DNA from: Flavobacteriales bacterium
GTDB taxonomy: Bacteria; Bacteroidota; Bacteroidia; Flavobacteriales_F; PHOS-HE28
Direction of reading: 5' to 3'
Length of the DNA: 64,000 nt
NCBI GenBank assembly: GCA_016718655.1
Contig: JADKCV010000018.1
Coordinates: 19,009-83,008 of the forward strand
The notes beneath the pieces are model-generated. The model saw nothing but the letters and a program-made list of their open reading frames with translations. It made no database searches and had not been told where the DNA came from. The position numbers and the translations under genes were made by a program. Below are positions 57,511 through 64,000 of the stretch, in pieces. Position 1 is the first letter of the stretch. Each line of letters opens with the position of its first letter.

Positions 57511-57543
57511 TCGTCCGACCCGATCTTGAGCGGCAACACCGAC

Positions 57544-58962
57544 ATGCGATCACTACACCGCCCCATCGCATTGCTTGCCGATATCCGCTTCTGGGTGCTG
57601 GTTTTGGTACTGGTGCGCCTGATCGGTATCACCAACCCTCCCCTGGAGACGGCCCATCATTGGCGTCAGACCACCGTGGCGATGGTGGCTCGCAATTACC
57701 ACGAGCACGGGATCGATCTGATGTATCCACGGGTGGACATGGCCGGCGAACGTAGCGGGATCACGGGCATGGAAGTGCCTCTGTTATCAGCGGCCATCGC
57801 GGTCATCAGTGGGCCGTTCGGCTATGCACACTGGTACGGCCGGATCATCGCATTACTCCTTTGTAGTGCGGGTCTGTTGGCCTATCACAGCCTGGTCCGG
57901 AAGTATTTCTCGGACGAGACCGCGTTTTACTCCACCCTCGTCTTGGGCGTATCGTTATGGTTCAGCTACGGGCGCAAGATCATGCCGGATGTACCGAGCA
58001 CTTCGCTCGTCCTGATCGGTCTGGCGTTCGCGGCGAAGGCCTTGCAGGGAGGACGGATCCGTTTGCTTGGACCAGCTGCTGCGTTTTGCATGGCATTGGG
58101 TACGGCGATGAAGCTACCTTCCGGCTACCTGATGGTACTGCTTCCCGCGATGGTCCTTTTTTCCCCTGCCACCAAGCGTGACCGCTGGATCCTGATGGGG
58201 TTGGTGTGCCTGTTCCAGTTGCCGGTGCTCTGGTGGTATTTCAGCTGGGCACCTCACTTGGATGAACTCGGTGGCTATACCCATTTCTTCATGGGGAACG
58301 GTATCGGCAAGGGGCTTCAGGAACTACTGCACGCTCCGATACGGGTGCTCGACAACTTCTACTTCGATGCATTGCGTTTCTCCGGTGCCGCCCTTGCAGT
58401 GGCAGGACTGGTGATGGCCTTTGCGCGCCGTGAACGTGTCCTCCTGATGATCGTGATGCTGGTCTCGCTCTCCTTCTTCTTCGTCATGCTCAAGGCAGGT
58501 GCCGCCTTTTGGAAGCATGCGTACTATGTGGTACCATTCATACCCCTATTGGCCCTTTTGGCGGGCAGCGCCCTTGTACGCGTTTCGAATTGGCGCTGGC
58601 GAGTTGCCCTCCTGGTCCTGGTAGCCACCGAAGGCCTTGCGAACCAATGGCAGGACCTGAGGATCTCCCCCACCCAAGCACCGCTTTTGAACTTGGAAGC
58701 CGCGTTGGACCAGCTGGGCGACCGGGGAGACCTGATCATCGTGAACAGTGGCTCCATTCCGACACCGCTCTATTTCGCACACCGAAAGGGATGGACATGC
58801 TACCGTGATGATCTGGCCCGAGTGGGCTACATCGATTCGCTCACCTCATTGGGGGCTGTGTGGTTGGTCCAGGTCCGTAAGGGATATGAAACGAACGTAC
58901 CGATCATGGCTCCGGCAGCAGTGATCACCGAGGATTATGCGATATTCCGTGTTCGGCCTTGA
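57544..58962 (+). CDS. GT-C fold (ArnT/GT39-like) membrane glycosyltransferase
   Basis: HHWRQTTVAMVARNY, MEVPL, YGRKIMPDV; multi-TM. Confidence 0.8.
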   Translation: MRSLHRPIALLADIRFWVLVLVLVRLIGITNPPLETAHHWRQTTVAMVARNYHEHGIDLMYPRVDMAGERSGITGMEVPLLSAAIAVISGPFGYAHWYGRIIALLLCSAGLLAYHSLVRKYFSDETAFYSTLVLGVSLWFSYGRKIMPDVPSTSLVLIGLAFAAKALQGGRIRLLGPAAAFCMALGTAMKLPSGYLMVLLPAMVLFSPATKRDRWILMGLVCLFQLPVLWWYFSWAPHLDELGGYTHFFMGNGIGKGLQELLHAPIRVLDNFYFDALRFSGAALAVAGLVMAFARRERVLLMIVMLVSLSFFFVMLKAGAAFWKHAYYVVPFIPLLALLAGSALVRVSNWRWRVALLVLVATEGLANQWQDLRISPTQAPLLNLEAALDQLGDRGDLIIVNSGSIPTPLYFAHRKGWTCYRDDLARVGYIDSLTSLGAVWLVQVRKGYETNVPIMAPAAVITEDYAIFRVRP

Positions 58963-60363
58963 TCACTGCGTCGCGGGCAATATGGACACCCGGATCTCGT
59001 CCGCCTTCAGGTAGCGCACCAGTGATCGGTTCGTCCAATGTTCAGGGTCGGTGTTCAATTCGAGGACCTTCAATGCCACCGCGGTACCGGGTTGTCTATC
59101 GAACCGTATGTCCGTAACGCGCTGAACGTGGGCATCCTCAATGGCGCGGTAGCGCATCGTCCATGCGCGGTCATTGGCTGCAGCGGCGCCCATCAGGAGA
59201 TCGGATGCCACGCGTCCGTCATTGCCTCCAACGAGCAAGGCCAGTACAAGACCGATCACTGGCGCGATGATCGCACGTCGCGAAGTTGGAAGCCGGTACC
59301 TCCCTGGCCGCAAGACCTGTTGTTCGATCGCCATGACCAGAATGACCCAGAGTGGCAGGAACACGGACCACCCGACGTTGACCGTTCGATGTTGACCGAG
59401 CATACCCGTGGCCCAATACGGAAGTACCATGCACATGGCCACAGCCAGGAAAATGACAAACGCAACGGTATACCAACGCCATGGAACCATGGGCGCACGC
59501 TCCGACCTTCGCAACAAGGCCAATACCACGATAGTTGCCAAAGTGATAGCAGGCGACAACACCCACGAAAGCAGGAACCGTCCGGTCTGAAGTACGGTCA
59601 TCCATAGGGTGAACAACACATCGCCGCCAGCCGTGAACTGCGCAGCCCGCGCTGCATTACCCGGCGCCAGGAAAGTGATCATCGCGGCGCTTATGTACAA
59701 CAACATCAGGATGGACAACGGTACGGGTATGTCACGGCATTTTCTCTTATGGTCAATGACGAACGCCACTGTTCCCATGAGCACCAAGGCGAGATGCACC
59801 TCGTTGCTCCACATGATCCAAACACCCAGCAGGGCTGCAAGCAAATACCATCGTGCTTGTCCCTGAGCATGTGTATCATAACGCAGGCGAATGGACACAG
59901 CCGCCAGGTGGACCAGCAGGATCTGTGGTAGGGTATACGTGACCGTGCCCGTGTACCAGTACAAGCCTTCCGTAAGGTCGGGCAAGGTGTTCAACCATAG
60001 CGTGGTGAAGCCCAGCGCAGCGGGTAGGCCCCATTGCCGCTGCACTCCCAAAGGCTGAAGCGCTCGGAACAGTGCCACCCATGCCGTGACCATGCCAACG
60101 ATCCAAACCGCAGGCAAGCAACGGTAGAGCACCAACCCGTCGTCGAGACCCAACACCAGCGGCCCACGCAGGACCAATAAGTTGCTCGCTACACGACCGT
60201 TCCAGCCAACGTATTCCTGAAACAAACGTTCGAGCAAGGGCAGGTCGAAGGCCGTGTACGCATAGGACCAGTCATCCGCATAGGGATGCATGTACACGCC
60301 GAGTACGACAAAGCGGGCAAAGCCCAGGATCATAAGGAGGTCGATCAGCGGCCGGGCGCGCAT
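58963..60363 (-). CDS. Multi-TM membrane protein, DUF6056/GT-C-like
   Basis: HPYADDWSY, WNGR, YWYTGTVTY, WSNE, APGNAAR. Confidence 0.7.
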   Translation of the reverse strand: MRARPLIDLLMILGFARFVVLGVYMHPYADDWSYAYTAFDLPLLERLFQEYVGWNGRVASNLLVLRGPLVLGLDDGLVLYRCLPAVWIVGMVTAWVALFRALQPLGVQRQWGLPAALGFTTLWLNTLPDLTEGLYWYTGTVTYTLPQILLVHLAAVSIRLRYDTHAQGQARWYLLAALLGVWIMWSNEVHLALVLMGTVAFVIDHKRKCRDIPVPLSILMLLYISAAMITFLAPGNAARAAQFTAGGDVLFTLWMTVLQTGRFLLSWVLSPAITLATIVVLALLRRSERAPMVPWRWYTVAFVIFLAVAMCMVLPYWATGMLGQHRTVNVGWSVFLPLWVILVMAIEQQVLRPGRYRLPTSRRAIIAPVIGLVLALLVGGNDGRVASDLLMGAAAANDRAWTMRYRAIEDAHVQRVTDIRFDRQPGTAVALKVLELNTDPEHWTNRSLVRYLKADEIRVSILPATQ

Positions 60364-60379
60364 CCGGTCCCGTTCCTGG

Positions 60380-61336
60380 TCACCAGCCAAGGCGCTGCTT
60401 GACGCGATAACTGTTCCGATCCGAACTGTTGCGGCTCACCAGTTCAGCCACGAAGCCCACCGTGAACAACTGCACCCCGATGACCATGGCGACCAAAGCC
60501 ACATAGAACAAGGCCTGATCGGATACCAAGGGAGCCGGTTCATGCCAAAGGAACAGGTGAAGCAACTTACTGACCAGCAGCCAGGCCACCGCACCCATAC
60601 CGAACACGAACATCATGGTACCCAGGCCACCGAAGAAATGCATGGGCTTCTTCCCGAAACGGAAGATGAACGTGATGGTAAGCAGGTCCAGGAACCCGTT
60701 GATGAAGCGGTCGAAACCGAACTTGGTCCTACCGTACTTCCGGGCGTGGTGCTTCACCACCTTCTCGCCGATGTTCCGGAACCCCTCCTTCTTGGCGATG
60801 AAAGGGATATACCGGTGCATTTCGCCGAACACCTCGATACTCTTCACCACCTCACTGCGATAGGCCTTCAGGCCGCAATTGAAGTCGTGCAAGTGTACAC
60901 CGCTCACCCGCCGGGTGGTCCAGTTGAAGAGCTTGGTGGGCAAGGTCTTGGTGATGGGGTCGTAGCGTTTCTTCTTCCAACCGCTCACCAGATCGAACCC
61001 TCCCTGGTCGATCATGCGATAAAGCTCGGGAAGTTCATCCGGATCATCCTGAAGGTCGGCATCCATGGTGATGACCACCCTACCTTTTGCAGCACGGAAG
61101 CCTTCGTTCAAAGCTGGGCTCTTGCCGTAATTGCGCCCGAAGCGGATCCCTTTGACACGATCATCGGCCTTGGCCAGTCGCTCGATCGCCTGCCATGAAC
61201 CATCGGTGCTGCCATCGTCGATGAAGATCACCTCATAGTGCACCGCCATAACGCCAAGTACGCCATGGAGACGGTCCGCCAGGATCGGCAACGACTCATG
61301 CTCGTTCAATAAGGGAACGACGATGCTCACGTCCAT
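60380..61336 (-). CDS. GT2 polyprenol-phosphate glycosyltransferase (ArnC/DPM1-like)
   Basis: SIVVPLLNE, IDDGSTDGS, RNYGKSPAL, TMDADLQDDP, HDFNCGLKAYR, GEMHRYIP; C-terminal TM pair. Confidence 0.93.
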   Translation of the reverse strand: MDVSIVVPLLNEHESLPILADRLHGVLGVMAVHYEVIFIDDGSTDGSWQAIERLAKADDRVKGIRFGRNYGKSPALNEGFRAAKGRVVITMDADLQDDPDELPELYRMIDQGGFDLVSGWKKKRYDPITKTLPTKLFNWTTRRVSGVHLHDFNCGLKAYRSEVVKSIEVFGEMHRYIPFIAKKEGFRNIGEKVVKHHARKYGRTKFGFDRFINGFLDLLTITFIFRFGKKPMHFFGGLGTMMFVFGMGAVAWLLVSKLLHLFLWHEPAPLVSDQALFYVALVAMVIGVQLFTVGFVAELVSRNSSDRNSYRVKQRLGW

Positions 61337-61381
61337 GCTGCAAGGATAAGCAGGGATGATCGAAGGATCGAGCGATCGTCC

Positions 61382-61389
61382 TACCTTTG
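61382..61389 (+). promoter_or_regulatory. -7 box TACCTTTG of the SRP RNA
   Basis: Exact TAnnTTTG match ending 3 nt before the RNA's closing helix. Confidence 0.75.
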
Positions 61390-61392
61390 TGC

Positions 61393-61490
61393 GGGGCAAG
61401 TCCTGTACGACCAGCTCCCGCTGAATCCCCCAGGTCCGGAAGGAAGCAAGGGTAGGCGGTTGTAGCGGTGCGATGCGGGTCGCTTGCCCC
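61393..61490 (+). ncRNA. ffs: Signal recognition particle 4.5S RNA
   Basis: Domain IV core CAGGTCCGGAAGGAAGCAAG with a GGAA tetraloop; ends pair (GGGGCAAG / CTTGCCCC); followed by a T7 tract at 61493-61499. Confidence 0.9.
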
Positions 61491-61702
61491 ACTTTTTTTG
61501 CCCGTATTGAACGAATCGCGGTCATGTTCCAAGCCCCATTGATCCGGTCCCGTACCCGAATTCCAAGGCGCTAAGCTGCCGCCGATCATCGAGGGGGATC
61601 AAGGTTGTTCTTCCTGAGGTCGCACCCATCCTGCCATGGATCATAGCCCGTTCGTTCATCAGGGCCCTGATCCAAACCACGATCAGCCTTTCCGGTTCGC
61701 AC

Positions 61703-61714: not shown

Positions 61715-62833
61715 ATGTCCACCGTTGCGATCCGCTCCTTACCAGCGCTCCGTCGGCACATCCGCTTCCGGGCCCTGCGTTATTCGATCACCCTGACCGC
61801 CCCCGCGCTAGCGATCGCGGGACTGCTGCTTCCTGGCTGGTGGACGTGGGCCACGGTATTCTATGCCTTCGGGGTGATCCCGCTGTTGGAACTACTGATC
61901 CCTGCGGACAAGTACAATTTGAGCAAGGAAGAAGGAACGGCCGCTTTGGAAGACCCCCTGTTCGATAGGCTGCTTCATGCCATCGTTCCCATCCAATGGG
62001 GTATTCTCATCCTATTCCTGTTCCAAGTGGATCGGACCGGTCTTGCCCTTTGGGAAGTGGCCGGGAGGATCCTGAGCATGGGCATCCTATGCGGGATCCA
62101 TGGGATCAACGTGGCGCATGAATTGGGCCACCGCGTCAGGCGCTGGGAGCGGGATCTTGCGCGTGCCTTGTTGCTCACGAGCCTTTACATGCACTTCATA
62201 ATCGAACACAACCGGGGCCACCACCGCCGCGTGGCCACACCCGACGATCCTGCCTCGGCACGGTTTGGCGAATGGCTGCCCCTGTTCTGGTTGCGCAGCG
62301 GTATCCTCAGCTTCATCAGTGCATGGCACATCGAGGCTGACCGTATGCGTAAGGAAGGTCACAAACCTTATGGATGGCGCAACGAAATGCTCCAGGCCTT
62401 GTTCTGGCAAGGCGCGCTCGTGCTTGTGATCGGTGTGGTGTTCAATGTCAAGGTCATGACCGCATTCCTACTGGCAGCGTTCGCGGGTATGATCCTGCTG
62501 GAAACGGTGAACTATATCGAGCATTATGGCCTACAGCGCGCGCGTTCGAACCAAGGGGGATATGTCCGGGTGCAGCATGTCCATTCATGGAACAGCGACC
62601 ACGTCATGGGGCGTCTTATGCTCTTCGAACTCTCCCGGCATAGTGACCACCACTGGAAGGCCAGTCGCAAATACCAGGTCCTGGATAGCCATGCGGATGC
62701 ACCACAATTGCCCACCGGTTACCCGGGCATGATGTTATTGAGCGCGATCCCACCCTTGTTCTTCGCCGTGATGCATCCCCGATTGAAGCGGATGTACGAA
62801 CAGTACGACACGCTCGTCGGTCCGGTCCGATAA
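61715..62833 (+). CDS. alkB: Alkane 1-monooxygenase (membrane non-haem di-iron)
   Basis: His boxes HELGH, EHNRGHH, NYIEHYG (HYG motif), LSRHSDHH; VATPDDPASAR; PQLPTGYPGM. Confidence 0.9.
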   Translation: MSTVAIRSLPALRRHIRFRALRYSITLTAPALAIAGLLLPGWWTWATVFYAFGVIPLLELLIPADKYNLSKEEGTAALEDPLFDRLLHAIVPIQWGILILFLFQVDRTGLALWEVAGRILSMGILCGIHGINVAHELGHRVRRWERDLARALLLTSLYMHFIIEHNRGHHRRVATPDDPASARFGEWLPLFWLRSGILSFISAWHIEADRMRKEGHKPYGWRNEMLQALFWQGALVLVIGVVFNVKVMTAFLLAAFAGMILLETVNYIEHYGLQRARSNQGGYVRVQHVHSWNSDHVMGRLMLFELSRHSDHHWKASRKYQVLDSHADAPQLPTGYPGMMLLSAIPPLFFAVMHPRLKRMYEQYDTLVGPVR

Positions 62834-62916
62834 CTTTGGTGCACGCTCCGGCACCCGGTTTGCTTCGTCGATAACCAGAAACGGCTCATCAACGTAGAAC
62901 CGGCGTCCATCGAATC

Positions 62917-64000
62917 ATGAATAGTACGGAGGAGACCGTTCAGGACCGTGCCGTTCCATCGGCCGTGAAGAGACTGATCACCGAACTGGTGCATCGTTTC
63001 GGGCGTAAGCGTATCGACCTGTTGACAGCCCGTTCATCGAGCAGGGCTGAACTTTCCAGCGGTGCGGTGGACTTCCGCGCAGAGACCGCTCATGTGCGTC
63101 GATCCGACTGGACCATTGACCCGTTACCCGATGCCCTGATGGAGCGCCGGGTGGAGCTCATTGGCGGCGCGCACCGATCCGAGCTCATCAATGGGTTGAA
63201 CGCAGGGGCCAAGACGTACATCGCCGACCTCTGGAACTTCACACCGAACGACACCTGGAACATCCTGCGGGCCCATCGGAGCTTGGAGCGTGCCGCAAAA
63301 TTGGAACTGGCCTACTTGGACACCGAAGAGGGCCGCGTGCGGGTGAACCCGAACACCGCTACCCGACTGATGGTGGTACCTCGGCCCCTTTTCGCGTTGG
63401 AAAGTGTCCTCATGTTGGACGATGAACCGGTGCCCGCCGCATTCTTCGACCTGGCCATGCTGGTGCATAACTGCGCGGCCAGTTGGGCCGCCAAGCAAGG
63501 TGGGATCTACCTCTACTTGCGCGACGTGCACGGTCATCTGGAAGCCCGGTTATGGGAGCAGGTGTTCGACCTGCTGGAAGAACTGTCCGATCTGCCAAGG
63601 GGAACCATCCGCGCCACTGTGATGATCGACAGTATCACAGGAGCACTCGAGGCCGATGAGATCCTGTTCGAACTGATGCACCACGCTGCCGGCCTGAGCG
63701 TGCACCCGCAAGGTTATGCGGCGGACCATGTCGCACTGTTCCATGGAACGGACCGCCCGGTACTACCCGACCGGGAGACCATCTTCCTGAACGCCCCTAT
63801 GTTGCGTGCGTTGAGCCTTCGCATCATCGGCGTTTGCCACCGGCGCGGGTGCCACGCCATCGGAGCACCCAGTTTCGTGCTTCCACCCTTGGTAAGGGAA
63901 AGGATGAAAGCCAGTTACTTGGAGATGCTCGGAGACAAGGAACGCGAAGCTGTGGATGGTTTCGACGGTACCATCGTGGTTGATGGTGATACGGTCAATC
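62917..64000 (+). CDS. Malate synthase A (AceB) homologue with a degenerate active site; runs off the window end
   Basis: Uninterrupted frame from ATG 62917 (not in the ORF track). It follows AceB landmarks: ELVHRF..KR..LL.AR, DF..ET..VR..DW, RRVE, LPRGTIRAT, LPDR, CHRRG, DKEREA..GFDGT. Confidence 0.85.
   Translation, partial: MNSTEETVQDRAVPSAVKRLITELVHRFGRKRIDLLTARSSSRAELSSGAVDFRAETAHVRRSDWTIDPLPDALMERRVELIGGAHRSELINGLNAGAKTYIADLWNFTPNDTWNILRAHRSLERAAKLELAYLDTEEGRVRVNPNTATRLMVVPRPLFALESVLMLDDEPVPAAFFDLAMLVHNCAASWAAKQGGIYLYLRDVHGHLEARLWEQVFDLLEELSDLPRGTIRATVMIDSITGALEADEILFELMHHAAGLSVHPQGYAADHVALFHGTDRPVLPDRETIFLNAPMLRALSLRIIGVCHRRGCHAIGAPSFVLPPLVRERMKASYLEMLGDKEREAVDGFDGTIVVDGDTVN

Follow-up and report, generated by a model that had tools for sequence, protein, structure and literature searches.

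A malate synthase A-like gene at the end of the window

The stretch of DNA analysed here, which we call the window, comprises 64,000 nucleotides (nt) of contig JADKCV010000018.1 from a Flavobacteriales bacterium. At its downstream end lies a gene resembling that for malate synthase A (MSA; AceB in E. coli), referred to below as the MS-like gene, whose product and conserved surroundings are the subject of this work:

62917..64000, plus strand: MS-like gene (malate-synthase-A-like), the first 361 codons of a protein of ~509 amino acids (aa), truncated by the end of the window

The reading frame is open from the ATG at 62917, the first after an in-frame stop 15 codons upstream, through 361 codons to the end of the window. 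A protein search recovered a near-identical full-length protein, P0001 (509 aa), which equals the window product except at residue 263. The window fragment matches the Pfam family PF01274 (MS_TIM-barrel) at 132.7 bits (E = 1.5e-38) and P0001 matches it at 145.3 bits, both above the gathering threshold of 26.4 bits. In the PDB, the window open reading frame (ORF) matches best the sequences of both solved MSAs, 3cux at E = 1.8e-58 and 3cuz at E = 1.4e-50, and the alignment is colinear over residues 14-355, with no frame breaks.

We then modeled P0001 with AlphaFold2 using a 77-sequence family alignment, obtaining a mean predicted local distance difference test score (pLDDT) of 93.6 and a predicted template-modelling score (pTM) of 0.93. 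Foldseek superposed this model on 3cux and 3cuz with template-modelling (TM) scores of 0.91-0.93 and root-mean-square deviations of 1.9-2.2 Å, placing it within the three-domain MSA fold; the next matches were malate synthase G structures, with TM scores of about 0.75. In the predicted structure, the N-terminal clasp, the TIM barrel and the C-terminal plug are all retained. An earlier reading made from the DNA letters alone (the sequence-only reading) had described an MSA homologue with an intact scaffold whose 361 visible codons follow AceB without stops or shifts, and both the open, colinear frame and the fold agree with that description.

Despite this structural resemblance, no member that we scored reached the cut-off of 594.5 bits for the malate synthase A equivalog, TIGR01344: P0001 scored 300.7 bits, the family members P0115 and P0125 scored 313 and 202 bits, and the window fragment scored 257.5 bits. 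It is because full-length members score ~300 bits against this cut-off that the family carries the label 'hypothetical protein'.

Active-site residues lost and kept

We compared 62 canonical MSA representatives, clustered at 50 % identity, with 122 members of the MS-like family. Canonical residues are numbered on the E. coli AceB sequence, and orthologue counts come from a 120-sequence alignment. In E. coli AceB (P08997), Arg166 and Asp447 are annotated as catalytic (PMC11347633), and the malate synthase mechanism requires Mg together with an Arg that stabilises the enolate and the oxyanion (PMC3832036). The corresponding sites within the window are as follows:

63223-63237, plus strand: ADLWN (D104-L-W106-N107 at 63226..63237) in place of the second-shell motif ADFED, following barrel strand beta2; the first Asp stays, Trp replaces Glu and Asn replaces the second Asp
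63376..63384, plus strand: V154-P-R156 at the end of strand beta3; catalytic Arg166 is replaced by Val154 (63376) and Arg168 is kept as Arg156
63520..63522, plus strand: R202, final residue of strand beta4; Arg in 100 % of the 122 family members, Pro in 90 % of canonical MSAs
63628..63630, plus strand: D238, directly after strand beta5, replacing the Mg ligand Glu250; Asp in 120/120 orthologues, Glu in 100 % of canonical MSAs
63691..63729, plus strand: G259-L-S-V-H263-P-Q-G-Y-A-A-D270-H271, following strand beta6, a remodelled form of GLNCGRWDY

Within the remodelled ADFED motif, the Asp is conserved in 120/120 orthologues and the new Trp and Asn in 118/120 each. The position of Arg166 holds a variable small residue across the family (V, A or T), and the second Arg of the RxRG motif, Arg168, is invariant. 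At 63691-63717, GLNCGRWDY reads GLSVHPQGY, such that the Mg ligand Asp278 is replaced by Gly266 in the window and by Gly or Ala across the family, and DGTW[VI]AHP reads DGTIVVDG. Replacements in the family further include E119/D120 by W/N, R276 by Pro, W277 by Gln, and W365 by Ile or Leu. As read from this alignment, the apparatus with which malate synthase handles glyoxylate, Mg and the enolate is clearly dismantled throughout the family.

Much of the remaining protein is retained. Defining canonical invariant positions as those at least 85 % conserved in canonical MSAs, we found 41 of 79 kept in the MS-like family, including Asp447, Asp117, Arg168, DEIL, LPDR, CHxRG and the WxW that follows the catalytic base. 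The base itself, Asp447, corresponds to Asp432 of P0001, which lies beyond the end of the window within the motif GGRxHDRSS and is invariant (120/120). The LPRGTI, LPDR, CHRRG and DGT motifs are all present in the window ORF, as the sequence-only reading had noted, and each of the motif changes it quoted (ADLWN at 63223-63237, Val at 63376, Asp at 63628, GLSVHPQGY at 63691-63717 and GTIVVDG) is found in our alignment. Its broader statement that the catalytic residues are replaced is correct for Arg166, Asp278 and the second-shell acids of ADFED, but not for the base Asp447, which falls in the C-terminal third outside the window.

New invariant residues cluster on the catalytic face

We next asked where the residues peculiar to the MS-like family lie. 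Forty positions are family-specific invariants, here defined as at least 95 % conserved in the MS-like family and found in fewer than 20 % of the canonical set; among them are W106, N107, P157, R202, D238, D263, P264, Q265, D270, H271, R429, H431, R433, S434 and S435. Among these new residues, D263 is conserved in 118/120 orthologues and Q265, D270, R429, H431, R433 and S435 in 120/120 each. Taking the catalytic face to be the last residue of each barrel strand (assigned by DSSP on the model) plus the three that follow it, together with the loop bearing the base, we found that it holds 17 of the 40 family-specific invariants compared to 3.3 expected, an enrichment of about five-fold (P = 3e-10, hypergeometric test). 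Because the substituted positions are among the most conserved in the protein and are enriched on this face, selection appears to act on a rebuilt pocket and not on the fold alone; the proposal in the sequence-only reading that selection maintains the fold is thus unsupported in the form in which it was made.

Two of the new residues suggest how lost functions might have been replaced. Arg202 is a candidate substitute for Arg166, as the end of strand beta4 adjoins, in the model, the end of strand beta3 that bore the lost Arg. The lost Asp278 position follows three residues after Asp263, which lies at the end of beta6. Taken together, we favour a pocket that has been rebuilt over one that has been relaxed or destroyed. 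The earlier designation of the protein as a pseudoenzyme therefore needs dividing: Arg166 and Asp278 are indeed lost, but the base Asp is invariant, Glu250 has become an equally invariant Asp, and the replacement residues are themselves invariant. The conserved, rebuilt pocket instead favours what had been offered as a fallback, a new chemistry, or else specific ligand binding, over a dead scaffold.

A conserved family in uncultured Flavobacteriales

Orthologues of the MS-like protein are numerous. At least 120 were listed by protein search, with 55-88 % identity and lengths of about 505-510 aa, and nearly all of those listed are named 'MAG: hypothetical protein [Flavobacteriales bacterium]' at NCBI (MAG, metagenome-assembled genome) or, at JGI, 'malate synthase'. 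With each GTDB species represented by one genome, a scan returned at least 112 MS-like loci, the best 80 of which all belong to Flavobacteriales or Bacteroidota MAGs, many from activated sludge or lakes. An exhaustive HMMER search of 1.84 billion representatives at 50 % identity resolved the family into about five full-length clusters scoring from 666 to 360 bits, followed by a clear gap in score; all other MS-like proteins scored at most 243 bits and shared 32-35 % identity.

Coding sequences in this family are under strong purifying selection. Nei-Gojobori estimates of the ratio of non-synonymous to synonymous divergence (dN/dS) between orthologue pairs ranged from 0.04 to 0.14, using only pairs with dS of 0.03-0.66 and excluding those whose dS was saturated or distorted by codon bias, and none of 79 full-length copies contains an internal stop. 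Between the window ORF and its 99.4 % identical counterpart on contig L004 there are eight nucleotide differences, seven synonymous and one non-synonymous. Since 120 orthologues carry the same motif changes, these changes are neither chance events nor sequencing artefacts. The sequence-only reading had argued for selection rather than decay and for genuine substitutions, and had named an absence of conserved orthologues as evidence to the contrary; the orthologue alignment and dN/dS analysis that it proposed uphold both points, with conserved orthologues in abundance. The best explanation of these data is that the MS-like gene is a functional, vertically inherited member of a distinct MSA-fold subfamily confined to uncultured Flavobacteriales.

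The single non-synonymous difference from L004 is at residue 263. The window encodes His here (CAC, 63703-63705), where 118/120 orthologues, L004 among them, encode Asp (GAC). D263H could reflect either a base-call error or genuine variation, in which case the allele is possibly impaired or altered in its metal preference. Two other copies, L075 (2556-3889) and L079 (5968-7330), each align in two pieces in different frames; these apparent frameshifts are possibly indel errors of long-read sequencing.

Gene neighbourhood

To characterise the surroundings of the MS-like gene, we examined 84 fetched loci. The most constant neighbour is a gene of ~90 aa encoding a DUF551 protein (PF04448), which in 83/84 loci follows in the same orientation at a distance of 20-150 nt; the remaining locus is cut. 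In the four loci for which we list it, its positions are:

11567-11857 in L001: DUF551 partner gene
13073-13354 in L002: DUF551 partner gene
11575-11853 in L003: DUF551 partner gene
1938-2183 in L004: DUF551 partner gene, just past the position at which the window ends

The partner scores 28-31 bits against Pfam PF04448, exceeding the threshold of 22. Its subfamily consists of only 124 clusters, all about 90 aa and found in the same taxa as the MS-like gene, none of them fused to another domain. Cys22, His67 and His84 are near-invariant, and many Gly, Trp and Phe residues are invariant. An AlphaFold2 model (pLDDT 89.8) predicts a small, beta-rich protein, which yielded no significant fold match in the PDB (best E = 0.76) and weak matches to models of phage DUF551 proteins (TM scores of 0.5-0.64). 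Past the DUF551 gene, a convergent FKBP isomerase gene is found in 77/84 loci.

The sequence-only reading had suggested looking for a canonical aceB or aceA next door. We found neither a second malate synthase (tblastn with E. coli AceB) nor the isocitrate lyase signature K[KR]CGH[LMQR] in the window or within 6-10 kb of the MS-like gene at the 84 loci; the conserved partner is instead the DUF551 protein. The genes called around the MS-like gene in L001-L004 and L085-L087 include no allantoicase, uricase or other purine-catabolism gene.

Upstream of the MS-like gene in the window lies alkB, encoding an alkane 1-monooxygenase, and between the gene for an L,D-transpeptidase and alkB (57526-61525) are three further genes:

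57526-58962, plus strand: 478-aa ORF with no Pfam or NCBIfam match
58963-60390, minus strand: DUF6056 membrane protein
60380-61525, minus strand: family-2 glycosyltransferase
61715..62833, plus strand: alkB, directly upstream of the MS-like gene; PF00487, match to AlkB structure 8f6t at E = 2.3e-70, all His motifs present

In 39/84 loci alkB lies directly upstream of the MS-like gene on the same strand. The closely related locus L001 lacks it, and there the glycosyltransferase gene adjoins the MS-like gene directly. In the deepest member of the family, P0125 (40 % identity; locus L085, 6832-9539), alkB is again directly upstream, the DUF551 gene is absent, and a convergent M1 peptidase gene overlaps the end of the MS-like gene. 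Fitch parsimony on a neighbour-joining tree rooted on L085 assigned the adjacency of alkB to the root ('present') with about 12 later changes, from which we infer that this adjacency is ancestral for the family. Because L085 keeps alkB without a DUF551 gene, the pairing with DUF551 may be younger than that with alkB.

We also considered a defence or phage module and rejected it, as the locus is syntenic and vertically inherited. PADLOC gave no match for the MS-like protein, its partner or AlkB, and PHROGs matches were limited to DUF551-like families.

A promoter-like element precedes the MS-like gene

Immediately before the MS-like start codon we identified a conserved element resembling a bacterial promoter:

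62873..62899, plus strand: promoter-like AACC-N17-CGTAGAA, ending 17 nt before the ATG of the MS-like gene

The strict form of this motif occurs once in the 64-kb window, considering both strands; the related loci, 2.02 Mb in total, contain 37 copies, about 31 of them at the same site upstream of the MS-like start. A looser form is found in 45/80 loci against 0.03 expected, and the hexamers GTAGAA and CGTAGA are 11-12-fold enriched upstream of MS-like genes. In most related loci the motif precedes the start by about 35-50 nt, and a variant found in other loci reads GAAAC[AT]-N~17-GCGTAATAT.

Promoters recognised by extracytoplasmic function (ECF) sigma factors carry 'AAC' at -35 and 'CGT' at -10, separated by 16-18 nt, close to the start codon. 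The element at 62873-62899 fits this pattern and spacing, near the start codon. The conservation of an ECF-sigma-like motif ahead of the MS-like gene suggests that this gene and its DUF551 partner form their own conditionally expressed, probably stress-controlled transcription unit, even where alkB lies upstream. No cognate ECF sigma factor was identified among the listed neighbours, beyond which sigma and anti-sigma genes were not looked for. The housekeeping promoter of Bacteroidetes was rejected as the conserved signal, since its -7 motif, TAnnTTTG, is present upstream in only 12/62 loci.

A second repeated feature was observed in the same region. The heptamer TCGTCGA recurs upstream of the MS-like start (for example in L023, L015, L013, L080 and L084) as a direct repeat with a spacing of about 21 nt that overlaps the -35 region. 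The form in the window is degenerate, TCATCAA, at 62864-62872 and 62886-62893. Judging by its arrangement, this repeat could be an operator for a regulator, either instead of the promoter element or in addition to it.

Weighing the possible functions

Four readings of a conserved MSA fold with a substituted active site are weighed here. Our preferred reading, to which we assign a probability of roughly 0.55, is that the MS-like protein is a neofunctionalised MSA-fold enzyme that is neither a malate synthase nor a dead scaffold. Under this reading, the new conserved polar residues (D238, D263, Q265, D270, H271, R202, R429, H431, R433 and S435) would make up a novel substrate site where the old one lay, possibly together with a novel metal site. 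The protein's chemistry would be of the acid/base kind, as in a lyase, aldolase or hydrolase, with an anionic substrate in place of glyoxylate plus acetyl-CoA, and it would act jointly with the product of the DUF551 gene that directly follows. Both genes would be transcribed from an ECF-sigma-type promoter of their own and hence expressed conditionally, under stress, and the ancestral place behind alkB may hint at a link to products of alkane or lipid oxidation.

Several points weigh against this reading. A conserved polar pocket would be equally expected of a non-catalytic ligand sensor, and a pseudoenzyme would be expected to show just the losses seen here, those of a metal ligand and of the Arg that stabilises the enolate. 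Convergence of the new Asp, His and Arg residues on one site is presumed. Neighbouring genes give no pathway, as they amount to the DUF551 partner, an FKBP gene in 77/84 loci that possibly reflects plain synteny, and an alkB that has been lost from adjacency in about half of the loci. Furthermore, the window copy itself, with His at the conserved Asp263, could be impaired.

The interpretation preferred in the sequence-only reading, that of a true pseudoenzyme, would retain the MSA fold and a binding pocket without turnover. Such a protein would serve either to sense a ligand such as an acyl-CoA or an organic acid, or as a regulatory or scaffold subunit, perhaps with the DUF551 protein as its client. 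We regard it as unlikely, albeit a serious contender. It accounts well for the loss of Arg166, Asp278, Glu119 and Asp120 and the replacement of W277 and R276, for scores below the TIGR01344 cut-off, for the obligate pairing with a small protein, and for the variation at the Arg166 position (V, A or T), as would be seen in a relaxed catalytic site. It sits poorly, however, with an invariant base Asp flanked by a newly invariant His and Arg (GGRxHDRSS), and with family-specific invariants that are mostly charged and located at strand ends, the classical catalytic positions of TIM barrels. Moreover, the sole divergent MS-like family to have been characterised proved to be an enzyme (PMC10120013). 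Clearly less probable still is that the protein remains a malate synthase, or a closely related Claisen-type enzyme condensing an acyl-CoA with a 2-oxoacid, in which the functional groups have been relocated, with Arg202 standing in for Arg166, Asp263 for Asp278 and Asp238 for Glu250 and the base Asp432 unchanged. All four of these groups are invariant in the family and occupy the same or neighbouring strand ends, the many new invariant Arg and Lys residues could bind the phosphates of CoA, and assimilation of acetyl-CoA would be sensible beside alkB. Yet the second-shell acids that hold the Mg-bound waters are now Trp and Asn, the acetyl-pocket wall DGTW[VI]AHP has lost its Trp and become variable, and neither an isocitrate lyase motif nor a glyoxylate-cycle gene was found in the window or the 84 loci. 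Finally, a pseudogene in decay, or an ordinary aceB distorted by an assembly or frameshift error, could draw on the unique D263H of the window copy and on the frameshifted appearance of L075 and L079, but is effectively refuted by the open frame, the seven synonymous differences to one non-synonymous difference from L004, dN/dS of about 0.05-0.1, and the presence of the same changes in more than 100 genomes.

If the protein is indeed a neofunctionalised enzyme, a more specific version can be formulated in which the MS-like and DUF551 proteins constitute an obligate two-component enzyme catalysing a reaction new to the malate synthase fold, with an ECF sigma factor turning on its expression and an original link to AlkB-dependent oxidation of alkanes or lipids. 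This version is speculative, and we would not expect all of its parts to hold. Were it true, it would add a third function to the fold, after malate synthase and the eukaryotic ureidoglycolate lyase (UGL), and would provide the first biochemical role for the DUF551 domain. The ECF-like promoter and the ancestral adjacency of alkB point to expression conditions that can be tested, and the strict pairing offers a handle on a widespread phage-associated domain. The family would also be a useful natural experiment in the migration of active sites within TIM barrels. In terms of annotation, taking the 'malate synthase' label at JGI at face value would lead to a glyoxylate shunt being wrongly attributed to these Flavobacteriales, which are abundant in wastewater and freshwater.

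Comparison with known systems

Our literature searches retrieved no description of this bacterial MS-like family or of any malate synthase pseudoenzyme, in line with the sequence-only reading, whose author likewise knew of none. Compared to malate synthase A (AceB; EC 2.3.3.9; TIGR01344; 3CUZ, 3CUX), the MS-like protein has the same three-part fold, a similar length and 28-30 % identity. It differs in the replacement of Arg166, Asp278, Glu119, Asp120, Arg276, Trp277 and Trp365 and the shortening of Glu250 to Asp, as well as in its 40 invariants of its own, half the equivalog score, the DUF551 partner, the ECF-like promoter and the lack of a nearby aceA. Malate synthase G (GlcB) and the CitE/malyl-CoA lyase superfamily share a TIM-barrel logic of Glu/Asp-bound Mg, an Arg and an Asp base (reviewed in PMC3832036), and the residues that define this logic are those missing from the MS-like family. 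Identity to malate synthase G is 11-13 %, and the MS-like protein has no counterpart of its large insertion.

We know of no DUF551 protein with a known biochemical function. Phage and prophage members of this domain family (PF04448; for example E. coli YfdS and the C-terminal domain of Ea22 V2) are related to the partner by Pfam score and by the weak match between models. Unlike them, the partner is chromosomal, vertically inherited within one clade, equipped with a conserved insertion, and located behind the MS-like gene.

Among the nearest full-length MS-like representatives at 50 % identity (P0127-P0269), we observed that the complete set of Arg166, Glu250, Asp278 and Asp447 is present in only 62 of about 128, and that many other lineages show different non-canonical combinations (for example P0127, P0131, P0133, P0138 and P0157). 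This points to a wider unexplored diversity of malate-synthase-fold proteins.

The closest precedent is eukaryotic. MS-like proteins such as D. rerio MSL lack malate synthase activity and act instead as ureidoglycolate lyases (Dembech et al. 2023, PMC10120013); they keep the glyoxylate site apart from Arg276 and Trp365 and have lost the acetyl-CoA site (PMC10120013). Like the family described here, UGL is an MSA-fold paralogue annotated as 'malate synthase' that has been repurposed, and the Arg276 and Trp365 positions are substituted in both. Judged by the criteria of that study (PMC10120013), UGL retains the equivalents of Arg166, Glu250 and Asp278, whereas the MS-like family differs at these positions and additionally at Glu119 and Asp120. 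UGL is also restricted to eukaryotes, peroxisomal and tied to purine-catabolism genes, none of which applies to the MS-like family. If our preferred reading of a neofunctionalised enzyme is true, the MS-like family would represent a second, independent repurposing of the malate synthase scaffold after UGL, in which the half of the active site that was rebuilt is the one that binds metal and glyoxylate.

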